Positions 704-63,458 of a DNA stretch of 64,000 nt are shown here, in pieces (the first letter of the stretch is position 1; every line of letters begins with the position of its first letter). Both the position numbers and the translations under genes were made by a program. Origin of the DNA: a virus. Under the pieces are notes generated by a model that saw nothing but the letters and a program-made list of their open reading frames with translations, was not told the origin of the DNA and searched no databases. The stretch lies in the IMG/VR virus record IMGVR_UViG_3300037140_000126, positions 1-64,000 of that record; one strand, 5' to 3'.

Positions 704-3136
704 TCATGGTAGTCCGAACCACACTGCGTTGTTGCCTGGAGTTAGATACGCTCCGATGTTCCATTTGCCACTCTGAGCACCTGTCAGCACTCTATTCGGC
801 CACACTGATACAGGAAGCAAAGCGTTCTGATATGTCGAGCCTAGATTGACTCCTGAATTGATGGCCGGAGAACCGGATTGCAGAGTAAGAACATCACTTG
901 CTGGGGTCGTAAACTTTGGATCACCGTCAATCCCATGTACTTCTTGCGCCGCCACGGCTGCGTGGAATGCTACACGGCTCCCGTAAAACGAGTTGTACCA
1001 ATCTACGCAGGGGGACGCCCCGTTGCAGAAATAATCATTGTAATCAAACACGTTCGAGGTTGGATCACTGTGGGCTGTGTTATCGGCCCAAACAAGATCG
1101 CCGCTGCTGGTCACGTTGGCAAAGATGTTATTCTTGACCAATGTGCTGACTGTCGTTCCGCCATCACTCGCCCAGCCCAGTTGAAGAGCAATGCCACCAG
1201 TCGGATTGTAGAGAGTATTCCCATAAACGACATTAGAAGCTGACGACTCGCTCACGTTAGCCCGAATCCAAATAACCTTGTTAATTGACGTAGCCTGTCG
1301 TCCGTTCACGACGTTGTACTCAATCACATTGTTAGATGCCGACTCCATAATGATTCCGTATTGTGGTGTTGCACTTGCGCCGGTTGAAAACTTATTGTAC
1401 CGAATCGTGTCATGCGCACAGGAGTCGTTTGTTCCATTACCCGACTCATCGCACCACACCCCAAATTTGTTTGCCGTTGCTGTGCTTACGTTGTAGGCAA
1501 TATCCAGATACCAGCTATCCTCGCTCATTAGTGCTGCTCCAGAGGAAACTGAAGAGGTCCCGCTAATCGTGTTGTAGCGAAGGTAAGACCCTGTGTTCGC
1601 GTGGGTGCTCGCGTGACTGAATTTTATTCCTCCCGTGTAATTGTTGCTCGCAAGATCGCTGAGCGTGATGGTGTTAGAAAAAATGTGAACTGAATCTCCC
1701 CAAAGAACTTGGATTCCGCGCCAATCATTCCCGGTGTCCCCGCCAACATCGGAAATAGTGTTGCTGTCAGCGTCGAAGCCATCGAAATGCGTTGCAGCGG
1801 ACCCGATAGCGCCAATTCCGTAATGCCAAGTTCCGTTCAGGGTATTCCCGGTGATTGTCCAATTCACAGAGGTTCCCGAGCTGCGCGTTGGAAAGATCAA
1901 AGCGATGTTTGTGTAACTGCACTGCAATCCGCTGATCGTGATGTTTGTTTTGTCTACAGAGGTGATCGCATAGTTCCTCTGAGCGACTTCGAAGGTATGA
2001 CTCCCAGTTGTGGGGTTGCTACTTCCAGCATAGGTATAGAATCTGGAGTTGACGGAATCCCACCACCACTCTGTCACCGAGGCATCAGAATTAAGAGTAG
2101 TCTTGCTGGTCGCAACCGTCATGCGCGAGCCGTCTCGCCAGCCGATGTACGGAGTCGCGGATTCAGATGTGTACCAGAGATTTGTTCCGCTTACCGTGCT
2201 TAAAGATATGTCGTCCAGATAGTATGAACCTGCCCAAGAGTCCATTTTTATTTCGTCTACCGTCATCGAATTTGTGGCTAGTCCTGTAATTGTTTGCTCG
2301 GTGGTTCCATCAACCTTTAGAACACACCCACCCGCCGCCGGGTCGGTCACCATCACTAAATCAACTTCATGCCAAACATCGAGAACGGCGGCGACGTTAT
2401 ACGCGGAGGTAGATGTCCCGACAACCGAATTGTTATAGCAGGTAGCTGTGACTTGCAGATTGCTGCTGGCGTAGGTAAAGTGCAGTTGAGCAACCGTATT
2501 CAATGCTGCATTATACAGCCATAGCTGCGAATCTGGATTGGTTGTCGAATGGTTCGCCACCCACAACGTCCATGTAGCGTTACTGAGACTTCCGATAGAT
2601 GTCTTCGTTAGAGCAGAATCCTTATTTGACGCCGCCTCCAATACGGAGTACGTCCCCGAATGTGTAAGGGCAGTTGAAACTGTCCATCCAGCAGGAGCGC
2701 CGTTGTTGGTTGCCACCCATTTGGACAAGTCTCCGGTTTCAAATCCATCCGAAAATATGACACTACTACTAAAGTCCTGCGTCCATGCTCCTGTCGTATT
2801 AGCAGACGCCGATCCAAGAATTTTAGGTAGTGCCCCGCTACCGTAAGCTCCGTAGGTTATGACGTTCCCCACGGTGCCAGTCACCCCTACCGTTTCCATA
2901 TCACGCCACGTATCTCCACGATTCAGCAAGATTGAGTCACCAGCATTTATCGTTGTAGACGTGCAGACTGATGAGCAACCTGCCATTCCAGGTGCAAATG
3001 CCCATGACGCCCCTGTTGAAGTTCCAGCGGCAGCGTTGCTCCCAGCATTTGAGACGTAGTATGTCGTAGCCGAAGCCGGAAGCGCGAAGACCAAGAGCGA
3101 GAAAATAATTATAAATTGTCTCATCGTTGTTCTCAT
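704..3136 (-). CDS. secreted right-handed beta-helix (pectin lyase-like) protein with lectin-like insert, C-terminus NNAVWFGLP
   Basis: Signal peptide (MRQFIIIFSLLVFALPASA), TTYYVSNAGSN start, many ITGNT/IYNN-type rungs, FSDGFETGDLSKW insert, GDPKF...LQSGSPAINSG near the end. Start placed at the ATGA overlap at 3136. Confidence 0.75.
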   Translation of the reverse strand: MRTTMRQFIIIFSLLVFALPASATTYYVSNAGSNAAAGTSTGASWAFAPGMAGCSSVCTSTTINAGDSILLNRGDTWRDMETVGVTGTVGNVITYGAYGSGALPKILGSASANTTGAWTQDFSSSVIFSDGFETGDLSKWVATNNGAPAGWTVSTALTHSGTYSVLEAASNKDSALTKTSIGSLSNATWTLWVANHSTTNPDSQLWLYNAALNTVAQLHFTYASSNLQVTATCYNNSVVGTSTSAYNVAAVLDVWHEVDLVMVTDPAAGGCVLKVDGTTEQTITGLATNSMTVDEIKMDSWAGSYYLDDISLSTVSGTNLWYTSESATPYIGWRDGSRMTVATSKTTLNSDASVTEWWWDSVNSRFYTYAGSSNPTTGSHTFEVAQRNYAITSVDKTNITISGLQCSYTNIALIFPTRSSGTSVNWTITGNTLNGTWHYGIGAIGSAATHFDGFDADSNTISDVGGDTGNDWRGIQVLWGDSVHIFSNTITLSDLASNNYTGGIKFSHASTHANTGSYLRYNTISGTSSVSSGAALMSEDSWYLDIAYNVSTATANKFGVWCDESGNGTNDSCAHDTIRYNKFSTGASATPQYGIIMESASNNVIEYNVVNGRQATSINKVIWIRANVSESSASNVVYGNTLYNPTGGIALQLGWASDGGTTVSTLVKNNIFANVTSSGDLVWADNTAHSDPTSNVFDYNDYFCNGASPCVDWYNSFYGSRVAFHAAVAAQEVHGIDGDPKFTTPASDVLTLQSGSPAINSGVNLGSTYQNALLPVSVWPNRVLTGAQSGKWNIGAYLTPGNNAVWFGLP

Positions 3137-5259: not shown

Positions 5260-5948
5260 GACAGCACCTCACCCTTCAATGGATCGCCAACACGCAACGC
5301 ATCAATCTTCGGCATGTCTTGCACCCAGGATTTACCAGAATGATGTATCACATGACTCTTAAAACTCAGCAGTGTGGCATATCCAGCGTTGTTCAACTCG
5401 TATGACGCATACGTGTCCGAACGTACATGAATCGTATCGTTTCTTGTTTCGTCCAGATACAGTCCAGGTGTTCCACGCCGTAACGCCATCATCGAGAAAG
5501 CCTGCATCAAACAGAGCCACGCATGGCCAGTAACACCGTGCTTCCCGGATTCACACCAGCGCTGCGGCGCTTCTTCTGACCACACAGACCCAACGAGTGA
5601 CACCTTCAAGCCTTTCTTTTTCGCTTCAGCCCACACGCTATACAATTCTTCAAGCCATCCGGGATTGACCTCGCAATCCGAATTCAGCAAGACAGCTTCA
5701 TGTGTCCGCACTAAGCGCAATCCCAAGTTTGCGGCTCGCGTCCACCACCGCTGTTTTTCAGAACGGATATATAAGCTCGACGGGAAGGCCTGTAAAATAG
5801 CAAGCATGTAAGCAGTTGTCGCAGGTTCACTCGCGTCATCGACAAAGATAATTCGATTCAGGTCAGGCGTGTGCGCCAGAACACTAGCTACACACTTATG
5901 CAAGTAAGAAAGTGCATCGTGCACGGGGATGACTATATCGACGGGCAT
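5256..5948 (-). CDS. glycosyltransferase family 2
   Basis: DIVIPVHD, IIFVDDAS, AANLGLR, VLLNSDCEV (DxD-like), VIHHSGKS. Confidence 0.88.
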   Translation of the reverse strand: MPVDIVIPVHDALSYLHKCVASVLAHTPDLNRIIFVDDASEPATTAYMLAILQAFPSSLYIRSEKQRWWTRAANLGLRLVRTHEAVLLNSDCEVNPGWLEELYSVWAEAKKKGLKVSLVGSVWSEEAPQRWCESGKHGVTGHAWLCLMQAFSMMALRRGTPGLYLDETRNDTIHVRSDTYASYELNNAGYATLLSFKSHVIHHSGKSWVQDMPKIDALRVGDPLKGEVLS

Positions 5949-60339: not shown

Positions 60340-61628
60340 CTAAATTGCAATATCCTGGCCAGGTTTGGCATAATATGCCGTGTAGCCCACCACGGTCTCG
60401 CCGTCGAGCGGATCATCGAAGGCCAATGCCTCCATGACACAATCCAGCTCGTAGCCCGTCAAGTCGGTTGTCCCGACGTTTTCAATCGCCCAAGCCGCTA
60501 CGTCGCGGAACTGATTGATTGAAACGTGCGGGTAGTACAGTGCAATCTGGGCTTGGTCAATCGTGTCGAGTATGAATAACCCGGACCATTCTGTGATGAA
60601 CGTGCCGCCTTCTCTCGCTGCCCAACCAGAAATCAACTGCACGTTCGACCCGGCTGGCGGTGTACCTTGTGGTGTGTTCGCAGGAACGGCAGTTGTGCCC
60701 CCGCCGCCGCCTACAAACGGTGCGTTGAGTGTGAGCACGTTACCATTGACGGCAATGATTCTCGCAACGAAGTCACTTGTCTTACGGATGTAATCCACAT
60801 CTGTGACGGCGTTTGGAAAGACAGGAACACCCGCCTCACCGATAAGCCCGTATGTTCCAAGCGTATAGTCGATATCGGCTACGATGAAGTCCCCAGCCGA
60901 GGCGCTGATCGCCGCCGCGCTAGTGACAGTGATTGACGGTGTAGCGGCCGAATAGCTGACCATTGCTGTCTTAGGGGCTCCTGAAGCAGACAGCGGGCCA
61001 GCGGTAGTTGCTGTTGAGCCATCCAGCAGGTTGATAGGATTAGTGCCCGTTGCGATCTTGAAGGCCATGCGCGACGCTTCGCGGAACTTGAATTCGAACG
61101 ACTCGCCGACTTGCCCTCTGTATTGCGCCCGGACTGCACCGCGATAACCGGAACGTACTTGGCCGATCTTTGATGCAGGCGTGATCTTGAAATCCTTGAT
61201 CCAGCCCAAATCTGTAAAGCCCGCCGGTGGGGAATACGTATTGAACGGACCACCAGTCTGCAAATCCAGCATCGTCGGGCCTACAGAAGTATTGGCGACC
61301 GACGATCCTAAGGCGGCGTTATAGGGCGCAAAGAATGCCCTATATCCGGCCCCGATCATGAGCATGTTCTTAAGCTTTGTTACAAATCAGGTTTTCTGAT
61401 TTGGGTTGGTCATTTCTGCCAACCTCTTACGGTTCTTATTCCCGTAAGCCCCGACTATTGCATCACCATTCTTGCACTCTCGGTGCCTTCTCGCTTAGTC
61501 TGTCAGCGTCCCTTTAGGGTTCGCCCTCGTTGCCATTCTCAGGGTTCGAGTCAATCAGAGAAGGTTTTACTTCCGCAAGAACGCTACGTGATACGGAAGG
61601 GCTGAACTAATGCCTTTGAGAGTGCCAT
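60340..61628 (-). CDS. major tail (tube) protein, spliced: join(61628..61593, 61374..60340), 356 aa
   Basis: Exon 1 MALSKALVQPFR has an AAGGAG SD. Exon 2 LKNMLMIGAGYRAF... has a tube-like DLGWIKD..ITP motif. The ORF-track ATG at 61365 lacks an SD. Confidence 0.82.
61375..61592 (-). ncRNA. group I self-splicing intron, ORF-less, 218 nt
   Basis: P1 CUUCCGU/GCGGAAG with U-G at the 5' splice site, P10 GUUCUU/AAGAAC, P3 CCUUCUC/GAGAAGG, P4 CUCG/CGAG, P6 GCG/CGC, P7 GACUA/UAGUC, P8 CACC/GGUG, three P9 hairpins, terminal UAACAAAG. Confidence 0.92.
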
Positions 61629-61715
61629 TTTAGTTAAGTCTCCTTATAGTTACGTTTGGGGCCACTTCCGGTAGACTTAACCGAATTGCCCCATGACCAA
61701 CTGTCCTGGCCATCA
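61629..61715 (-). promoter_or_regulatory. structured 5' leader of the tail tube gene (two hairpins plus loop-SD pseudoknot)
   Basis: AUGGCCA/UGGUCAU and GGGGC..UUCGGU/ACCGGA..GCCCC stems. GUUAAGUCU (61681-61673) is complementary to AGACUUAAC (61641-61633). Confidence 0.55.
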
Positions 61716-61721
61716 GCTTAA

Positions 61722-62447
61722 CTATTGGCACTCTTCTTCACATGCTTCCAACGAAGTCAGAATTCTAAACTCAATGTCCGCAGATTTACAAAACGCTCTT
61801 GCGGCCCTAAACTTGGCTTGATTCTTTGGGTCCTTGAGAAAGGCGACTGGTTTGATTTCTTCCAGTATATGCGTGCCATCTGCGTAGCAAATCAGCAAAT
61901 CGGGAAGGTAATAATGCGCCTTGCCATTCAAACTGTATGGAATCCGTACAGGTGTGCGTCTATAACTTGACACTTCGTTAGAAAGTTCAAGCACACGCAT
62001 ACGAGCTAACTCCCAAGAACAGTCGTAATGCATAGTCCTGTGATTCTTTTTGGAGTAGAAGTCACCGTGCTTACCACGGTTTACACGAGTTTTCCAGTAA
62101 CGCTCTGTTCCATCAGCGTCCTTAATAAAGTTACGAATGTTTTGTGCGGGGTCTAAACGCCCGTCGGCAATCGCTTCACGGACACCAGCACTATTCCTCT
62201 CTCGGTGAACGTGGCACACCTTCTTGCCCTTAGGCCATCCCATGTGTATATTATGCTCAAGATTATATGCACGTAGCCGCTTACCATTCTCGACTTTAGC
62301 TTTTGCACCTTCCGCCGTGAAAAGACGAGGGCCACACGAATCTTTCACACCTTTCGGTCGTCCAGCAGCGCTCATATCACGCTTCGCGTAACGCCCATCG
62401 CGCCACGCTTTGCGGAGCTTTGCTTTCTTTTGTTCAGGGCATTTCAT
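61722..62447 (-). CDS. free-standing TnsA-N-like PD-(D/E)xK endonuclease with basic N-terminal DNA-binding region (putative homing endonuclease)
   Basis: YDCSWEL, IPYSLNGKAHYYLPDLLI, LEEIKP, KNQAKFRAARAFC, FRILT. NUMOD3-like basic repeats at the N-terminus. Confidence 0.8.
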   Translation of the reverse strand: MKCPEQKKAKLRKAWRDGRYAKRDMSAAGRPKGVKDSCGPRLFTAEGAKAKVENGKRLRAYNLEHNIHMGWPKGKKVCHVHRERNSAGVREAIADGRLDPAQNIRNFIKDADGTERYWKTRVNRGKHGDFYSKKNHRTMHYDCSWELARMRVLELSNEVSSYRRTPVRIPYSLNGKAHYYLPDLLICYADGTHILEEIKPVAFLKDPKNQAKFRAARAFCKSADIEFRILTSLEACEEECQ

Positions 62448-62463
62448 AGTCGAAAGTATAACA
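62448..62463 (-). promoter_or_regulatory. extended -10 promoter TGnTATACT, 7 nt before the endonuclease ATG (leaderless)
   Basis: TGT-TATACT at 62463-62455, ATG at 62447. Confidence 0.65.
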
Positions 62464-62467
62464 CTCC

Positions 62468-62986
62468 TCAGAAAATCTGATCCGTAAAGTCAGTTATTCT
62501 TACGGTGCCCGTCCCGTACGTCACACCGCTATTTTTCTCGTTGCGGTCCACGATACTGACAGGCGACCAGATGATAAATTCTGCCGGATCAACTGGAATA
62601 GCGACGAGCGCTCCAGCGGCACTCACAACGACATTTTGCTTTTGTGCAAATCTTGGGTACACACCGTTCTCCAGCTCGCCCTTCATCGTGAAGTGTGTAC
62701 GATAGCGGTCGCCTCTGCCACGCATTTGAATTCCCGTCTGAATGTCCGTACCGACAATCATCCATGTCCATTGCACTGTATGCACCTTAACAGGAATCGA
62801 CGCCGAATCCGCTTGCTTTCCCAAGGGCACTTCCCCGAGCACGAGCAGATAGAAAGACTCTGTTTCTACGTTCTTCGGTGGCCAGTCCTGTGCACTCATC
62901 ACACCGATTACTTTACGGCTTGCATTCAGAGCTTGAATGCGCGTCTTGACCCACAAATAATGCGAATCCACACTAGCCGCATACAC
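62468..62986 (-). CDS. tail terminator / neck protein (tentative)
   Basis: 172 aa, position upstream of the tail tube, alpha/beta pattern ending GTVRITD. Confidence 0.55.
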   Translation of the reverse strand: MYAASVDSHYLWVKTRIQALNASRKVIGVMSAQDWPPKNVETESFYLLVLGEVPLGKQADSASIPVKVHTVQWTWMIVGTDIQTGIQMRGRGDRYRTHFTMKGELENGVYPRFAQKQNVVVSAAGALVAIPVDPAEFIIWSPVSIVDRNEKNSGVTYGTGTVRITDFTDQIF

Positions 62987-62987
62987 G

Positions 62988-63458
62988 TCAGTAAATCCTT
63001 CTTACCATGAGTTGCTGCAAGCCCGCATATCGCTCTGCACCGATAATCTTGATAACGTCAAGCTCCATGTCTTCCTCGGGTGCTTTCATACGCAGCAGCA
63101 TCATCAGCCACATGTACCACCACAACTTTGCAGGCTGCATACTGTCGAACGATTCACACGCAAACGTGAACGTAGCGCCGAATGCGTCTTTCGGTTCAAA
63201 CTTGGCCATCGACAGGCACGCGTCCTTGAAGTTTGTTCTGTAGCAACGCGTCCCAACAAGAGATGCATTGCGTAGATTCGCACCTTCAAAGTTCGCATAG
63301 CTCAAATCCGCATCATCGAAGTTCGCCCCAATTAAACTGGCACAGCGAAAATCAGCATGATCGAGTTTCTGTCCGGAGAAATTGCGGTTCGCCAGTTTCT
63401 TATTATAAAAGTCTTTCCCCACCCTGTCGGCACGTACAGTTGGCATCGTGTTCCCCAT
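62988..63458 (-). CDS. pentapeptide-repeat protein
   Basis: LDHADFRCASLIGANFDDADLSYANFEGANLRNASL A(D/N)LXX repeats. Confidence 0.88.
   Translation of the reverse strand: MGNTMPTVRADRVGKDFYNKKLANRNFSGQKLDHADFRCASLIGANFDDADLSYANFEGANLRNASLVGTRCYRTNFKDACLSMAKFEPKDAFGATFTFACESFDSMQPAKLWWYMWLMMLLRMKAPEEDMELDVIKIIGAERYAGLQQLMVRRIY

Follow-up and report, generated by a model that had tools for sequence, protein, structure and literature searches.

[quoted passage not shown]

Collaborative homing is the leading model for the way mobile introns originate, and to our knowledge natural cases of it are very few. In the established case (Zeng, Bonocora & Shub 2009, as described in PMC6083498 and PMC3984707), the psbA group I intron of cyanophage S-PM2 is paired with the endonuclease F-CphI. 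A route by which a free-standing endonuclease and an ORF-less intron would become a composite mobile intron has also been proposed (Bonocora & Shub 2009, as described in PMC3984707 and PMC2988022). In trans homing at the nrdB gene of phage T4, the adjacent free-standing enzyme MobE moves an immobile intron by co-conversion (PMC2790892). A PD-(D/E)xK homing endonuclease is known as well, I-Ssp6803I (PF11645), and the same source gives TnsA (PF08722) as a transposase only (PMC3424549). T4 gp4 is a 150-aa single-domain PD-(D/E)xK protein with a core role in head completion (PMC1189080). Our literature search found no paper joining NUMOD3 with TnsA.

Here we describe a phage locus in which a gene for a TnsA-like nuclease stands next to a tail gene that is interrupted by a group I intron without an ORF. 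As at F-CphI/psbA, nuclease and intron are optional together, and we propose that the intron shields the donor while the enzyme mobilises the intron. The two systems differ in the enzyme, which has an Endo VII-type catalytic motif in F-CphI and a TnsA/gp4-type PD-(D/E)xK fold here, and in the host gene, here a tail gene interrupted by the intron after codon 12; F-CphI was shown to cleave at the insertion site, whereas for our enzyme such cleavage is a prediction. Compared with the Bonocora & Shub route, as far as the citing papers describe it, our locus (enzyme outside the intron) and a second locus, L046 (enzyme inside), look like its two states, but their introns lie 6 nt apart, the phages are not sisters, and the nuclease belongs to another family. 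MobE and nrdB likewise combine an adjacent free-standing endonuclease with an intron unable to move alone; MobE, however, is an HNH enzyme that cuts away from the intron insertion site (PMC2790892), and the T4 nrdB intron has a defunct endonuclease gene whereas ours is ORF-less. With I-Ssp6803I our protein shares a PD-(D/E)xK nuclease tied to a group I intron, which for I-Ssp6803I is bacterial, but the family is different and I-Ssp6803I is intron-encoded in a tRNA gene. With T4 gp4 (phrog_218) it shares sequence similarity in the catalytic domain and a gene position in the head-tail module; unlike gp4, it is 241 aa long with an added N-terminal region and is dispensable in relatives. The layout is known from F-CphI/psbA and MobE/nrdB, and what is new is the nuclease family, the tail-gene site and the natural pair of side-by-side and fused arrangements.

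The nuclease and its gene

The window, by which we mean the whole stretch of DNA analysed, covers the first 64 kb of an uncultured virus record; this record has 124,954 bp, is rated complete and was found in peat and permafrost metagenomes from many studies. Between 51 and 64 kb every gene is on the minus strand, and this part of the window forms a head-tail-tape-measure module (Table 1). The nuclease ORF (61722..62447, minus strand) is full length with an ATG start, encodes 241 aa and is present in a single copy in the genome. It lies between the 172-aa neck-region gene and the tail gene, and begins 20 nt past the neck stop. Beyond the neck gene, a pentapeptide-repeat protein (window 62988-63458, minus strand) is a member of the head-tail joining module and is kept in all relatives examined.

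Table 1. Positions of the features at the window locus and at the syntenic locus L046
Feature	Coordinates	Strand	Basis or remark
Window: tail gene exon 2 (KNMLMIGAGY...)	60340..61371	-	putative tail tube / major tail protein
Window: ORF-less group I intron, 221 nt	61372..61592	-	P1 (U.G at splice site), P10, P3-P9, P3/P7 pseudoknot
Window: tail gene exon 1, 12 codons (MALSKALVQPFR)	61593..61628	-	homology to relatives; good SD ahead
Window: native tail-gene leader with SD (AAGGAG)	61629..61721	-	weak alignment to intergenic region of nuclease-less relatives
Window: nuclease catalytic domain (aa 126-241) and stop codon	61722..62072	-	TnsA / T4 gp4-type PD-(D/E)xK; E146, D183, E197, K199
Window: nuclease N-terminal region (aa 1-125)	62073..62447	-	helical; conserved GRPKG.K and NS.GV..AI..GR motifs
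Window: extended -10-like motif TGTTATACT, candidate promoter	62455..62463	-	7 nt before nuclease ATG
Window: neck-region gene, 172 aa	62468..62986	-	no family match; present in all relatives
L046: tail gene exon 1 (MANLPKSLQQP)	1905-1937		
L046: group I intron, 924 nt	1938-2861		canonical terminal G
L046: TnsA-like nuclease ORF, 256 aa	2076..2846		in intron P8 loop
L046: tail gene exon 2 (YRKNKLVVGSGW...)	from 2862		

The Pfam family PF08722 (TnsA-like endonuclease N) matches aa 157-231 of the protein with an E value of 5.3e-16. Among the PHROGs, the best match is phrog_218 'head closure' (2.5e-17), and phrog_15427 'endonuclease' is matched as well. An AlphaFold model built with 50 homologues has a mean pLDDT of 84, with 94-98 in the C-terminal domain, and a Foldseek search with this model gave TnsA (1t0f/1f1z; E 6e-8, 130 columns, rmsd 3.0 Å) as the sole strong PDB matches. 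Across the 50 homologues E146, D183 and E197 are invariant and K199 is nearly so, in the E...PD...ExK layout that active PD-(D/E)xK enzymes have. The original prediction had placed a TnsA-N-like PD-(D/E)xK nuclease between the neck and tail genes, and Pfam, Foldseek, the catalytic residues and the gene order all agree with it. Judged by sequence and structural model, we conclude that the protein is an intact TnsA-fold PD-(D/E)xK nuclease. Tn7 TnsA (1f1z, 1t0f) is its best structural match and has the same E...D...(E/Q)xK active-site layout. Unlike TnsA, the protein has a different N-terminal region and no TnsA C-terminal domain (PF08722 is matched alone, and the protein ends with the catalytic domain), and around its gene there is no TnsB, TnsC or transposon context, the neighbours being phage structural genes. 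The nuclease is not a transposase subunit. Pfam gave no match to PF11645, the I-Ssp6803I family, which is also absent from the fold matches listed, where TnsA is at the top.

The N-terminal region (aa 1-125) is the putative DNA-binding part. Pfam matches NUMOD3 at aa 90-108 (23.8 bits) of a homologue in Bacillus phage Moonbeam whose annotation reads 'endonuclease, contains NUMOD3'; the match is just before the segment that aligns with window aa 91-99, the second N-terminal motif (NS.GV..AI..GR). Pfam called no NUMOD3, at E values up to 10, in the window nuclease or its nine closest homologues; by homology and by eye, its N-terminal region looks like NUMOD3.

The nuclease family is very large: a profile search gave at least 8,594 representative clusters when the cutoff was E 1e-3 and 3,401 when it was 1e-10. 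Many have 200-350 aa and variable N-terminal parts. The closest homologues (P0002-P0008) are 41-59% identical and come mostly from Logan and ENA; none of 10 representative clusters carried a name. Scanning viral contigs with the nuclease as a single protein gave no match, nor did blastn of the nuclease-intron region against cultured phages. Several homologues are in phage tRNA arrays, and on sequence context the locations of the homologues examined are typical of free-standing homing genes. In most of the distant TnsA-like loci no intron was detected. At one locus (L024 4536-5867), a 281-aa nuclease with a zinc ribbon and a TnsA/EndoI-like domain is just upstream of a phage tRNA array, and a group I intron called by Rfam (5639-5867, 93 bits) seems by eye to split a tRNA gene of that array. 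At another (L047 1849-2925), a 358-aa homologue, 46% identical over aa 82-237 and with cysteine-rich N-terminal repeats, sits between genes that by eye are queE-like and queF-like.

The nuclease was also predicted to have its own leaderless promoter, with TGnTATACT exactly 7 nt before its ATG. The placement is right, as TGTTATACT is at 62455-62463 on the minus strand; promoter status did not hold up to the same degree, since the motif is a single well-placed consensus match. It is the sole match to TGNTATAMT in the whole 125-kb genome. Chance alone is expected to give about 2.4 matches per 64 kb, and 93 of 100 shuffles held at least one, so that only the position of the motif stands out. Upstream of it we found no -35 element. 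The nuclease has no SD at normal spacing, and the nearest GGAG is 16 nt upstream, overlapping the neck gene stop. A leaderless nuclease transcript is possible on this sequence. Upstream of the ORF in the L046 intron there is a weak resemblance to the -10-like motif that is too close to the ATG, and we made no use of it. The contigs of the RNA run include none in the nuclease ORF beyond 61739, and those of DNA run X10 none over 61853-62831; such gaps over the nuclease are uninformative on its expression or its absence.

A group I intron interrupts the tail gene

The annotated 341-aa tail ORF (60340..61365) is without a true start, whereas in all relatives the tail gene starts MALSKALVQPFRKN... 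as a single unbroken frame. Aligned with the DNA of these relatives, the window has an insertion exactly after codon 12 of the tail gene. Within it we read a group I core by hand, consisting of P1, a contiguous 6-bp P10 and then P3 to P9. Over homologous cores from other viral contigs, both sides had changed in 15 of the 28 core pairs, and 99.1% of core cells were paired, against 37-46% in a control with slid partners. Rfam gave no match on the intron, even at E 10 on 300 nt. Because the general group I model of Rfam misses the whole subfamily of window-type introns, the identity of the intron rests on the hand-derived structure, the covariation and an RNA joint. This joint is in a peat metatranscriptome: in a mismatch-free contig of 243 nt and depth 8.5, position 61592 adjoins 61370, the 221 nt between them being left out. 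The same metatranscriptome also has an unspliced contig, and three DNA runs have the intron-containing form only. From the insertion, the covarying core and the joined message in the RNA library, we conclude that the intron is real.

The joined RNA contig, P10 and all intronless relatives give the spliced junction ..CCGT/AAGAAC.. (QPFR/KN, the slash marking the junction), written ..CAGCCCTTCCGT/AAGAACATG... The junction first put forward, ..CCGT/CTTAAGAAC.., was 3 nt off, and the same three lines of evidence correct it to ..CCGT/AAGAACATG. With the 5' splice site after U61593, the last base of the intron is U61372 and not G. Group I introns end in a near-universal G. The homologue of the terminal G of the L046 intron is G61375, 3 nt upstream of where the RNA contig is joined. 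The 3' splice site of the window intron may be unusual; the alternative is that the joined contig is from an intronless but otherwise identical phage that was carried into the RNA library.

The nuclease gene is within co-conversion distance of the intron site. From its stop (61722-61724) to the 5' splice site there are 129 nt, in line with the earlier estimate of about 130 nt, and from its start 855 nt. The leader of the tail gene aligns weakly with the intergenic region of nuclease-less relatives, and the nuclease was therefore inserted upstream of the leader.

Window-type intron cores also occur elsewhere. One is in large AT-rich phages, in a gene that is nrdD-like by eye, with an HNH ORF inside (L042 3150-4387), and another is in a structural gene of a different phage, with an HNH endonuclease ORF inside (L038 3908-4602). 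Near ten related intron cores in viral contigs we found no TnsA-like nuclease, and those introns hold HNH genes.

Relatives without the element and a fused counterpart

Nine viral loci, eight of them distinct, have a tail protein 51-70% identical to that of the window and keep the order pentapeptide-repeat, neck, tail and next gene. Nuclease and intron are both absent from all eight distinct syntenic relatives, and no nuclease homologue is present anywhere in one relative whose 128.6-kb genome is complete, with terminal repeats. We conclude that the window nuclease is an optional gene and not a core one. The alternative named alongside the original prediction, a core head-completion nuclease, fails on the complete 128.6-kb relative, which is without such a gene. 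No genome with only the intron or only the nuclease was found among the relatives examined. The close relatives are thus all-or-none with one positive genome, and for this reason their co-occurrence leaves linkage and joint ancestry unseparated.

Two relatives carry nuclease genes at other sites. In one, with 60% tail-protein identity, a different optional nuclease separates the tail gene from the next gene (L034 4659-5465); this 268-aa protein has a Pfam Phage_endo_I match (4.6e-7) and basic N-terminal repeats, and hhalign detected no relation between it and the TnsA-like nuclease family. Nuclease genes seem to use the tail gene as a landing zone. In the other relative, a TnsA-like nuclease is located between two connector genes (L031 20-711); it reads as two overlapping ORFs (90 and 161 aa), possibly through a frameshift or decay.

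We ran a covariance model of the intron core (R1) on 74 sources, namely the window, 65 nuclease-homologue loci and 8 tail-gene relatives. Besides the window, R1 matched one of them, the metagenome locus L046 (E 1e-10), which is syntenic with the window: gp10-like, pentapeptide, neck and tail genes follow one another as they do there. Over 206 aa, N-terminal motifs included, the nuclease encoded in the L046 intron and the window nuclease share 40% identity (E 2e-49). In the two introns the 3' parts are 76% identical, the P9 hairpins are nearly alike and the 5' cores align; on this comparison the introns are homologous. A search with the P7'-P9 sequence common to both found no further match.

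The two introns are at different sites of the same gene, QP/YR in L046 and QPFR/KN in the window, with that of L046 6 nt upstream. Because the sites are 6 nt apart and the nucleases only 40% identical, the two enzymes need not share a target. In a tree of tail proteins, two relatives lacking both elements form a group with L046 (100/100), while the window is elsewhere, amid relatives that are also without both, so window and L046 are not sisters. The nuclease family and the intron lineage are thus paired in two non-sister phages, fused in one and side by side in the other, and in none of the others. Such patchy, paired occurrence in non-sister phages is as predicted for a mobile element. The original prediction had asked for co-occurrence in related phages, and what we found is that both parts are absent in eight distinct relatives and both present in the non-sister L046.

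A two-part element and its alternatives

We think it probable, on the sequence evidence, that the 241-aa protein is a free-standing homing endonuclease and, paired with the ORF-less group I intron, makes up a two-part selfish element in the manner of collaborative homing. In a mixed infection with a related phage lacking both parts, the enzyme would cut the tail gene of that phage, which has no intron, at codons 11-13 or close to them, and the break would be repaired with the donor genome as template. Co-conversion would then carry two things over to the recipient: the intron, from the position of the break, and the nuclease gene, from 0.13-0.86 kb upstream of it. The donor would be immune, its target site being split by the intron, and would keep a working tail gene through splicing. 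What is observed at these loci is the fold and intact catalytic residues of the nuclease, its optional and patchy distribution, the intron, and the physical link between nuclease and intron in two arrangements; the cut site, the immunity of the donor and the mode of inheritance are predicted. As for collaborative homing as first proposed for this locus, the part that stands is an optional nuclease tied to an ORF-less intron, with both absent from the 8 relatives and a homologue that is intron-encoded in L046; the homing steps keep the conditional form given above.

An unlikely reading is that the protein is a free-standing homing endonuclease with another target, in the 3' end of the neck gene, in the neck-tail spacer or deeper in the tail gene, so that the intron is an independent resident and hitch-hikes by co-conversion at most, as the T4 nrdB intron does with MobE. 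Free-standing enzymes usually cut the flanking conserved gene close to their own insertion point (PMC6083498, PMC2790892), and the nuclease insertion, 20 nt past the neck stop, is about 870 nt from the intron site. The homologues in L031 and L047 occupy other intergenic sites where no intron was detected, and in L034 the different optional nuclease flanks the tail gene on its opposite side, which makes the region a general landing zone. However, the homologous enzyme of L046 is intron-encoded, and such enzymes normally target the region of intron insertion; nuclease and intron are, moreover, jointly absent from every relative examined. A target at the intron site is what we continue to favour.

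It is improbable that the nuclease gene is a relic, once mobile, now inactive or unexpressed, and retained only because the tail gene is linked to it. Decay after fixation is common among homing endonuclease genes (PMC3984707), and this one has no SD at normal spacing and a promoter that is only a candidate; its frame, however, is full length, with the four catalytic residues and the N-terminal motifs intact and a high-confidence fold. A function that serves the phage, such as head completion like that of T4 gp4, DNA processing or degradation of host DNA, is very improbable: the best PHROG is 'head closure', the C-terminal domain shares about 30% identity with proteins of the gp4 type that are called 'head completion' in T4-like phages, and the gene is within the head-tail joining module, but it is absent at the site in all syntenic relatives and from the complete related genome, it has a 125-aa N-terminal extension that is missing in the 150-aa gp4 (PMC1189080), and its homologue is encoded inside the L046 intron.

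Starting again from the two-part element, a broader proposition can be put together. In this proposition, nucleases that combine the TnsA/gp4 fold with a NUMOD3-like part would be an undescribed and very large homing family of thousands of clusters, with free-standing and intron-encoded members; the window and L046 would be two states of the predicted transition at one site; and the window intron would splice without a terminal G. We consider it evenly balanced whether all of this holds jointly. The transition could equally have run in the other direction, in which case the ORF may have left an intron.

The window locus is a candidate for a further case of collaborative homing with a different nuclease fold. 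Both proposed states are present in related phages at nearly the same codon, which makes the pathway testable. Similarity to T4 gp4 often earns phage proteins of the TnsA/gp4 fold the label 'head closure' or 'head completion', which for the window protein is wrong. With at least 8,594 clusters in the family, many phage genes would be reclassified if the activity were confirmed.
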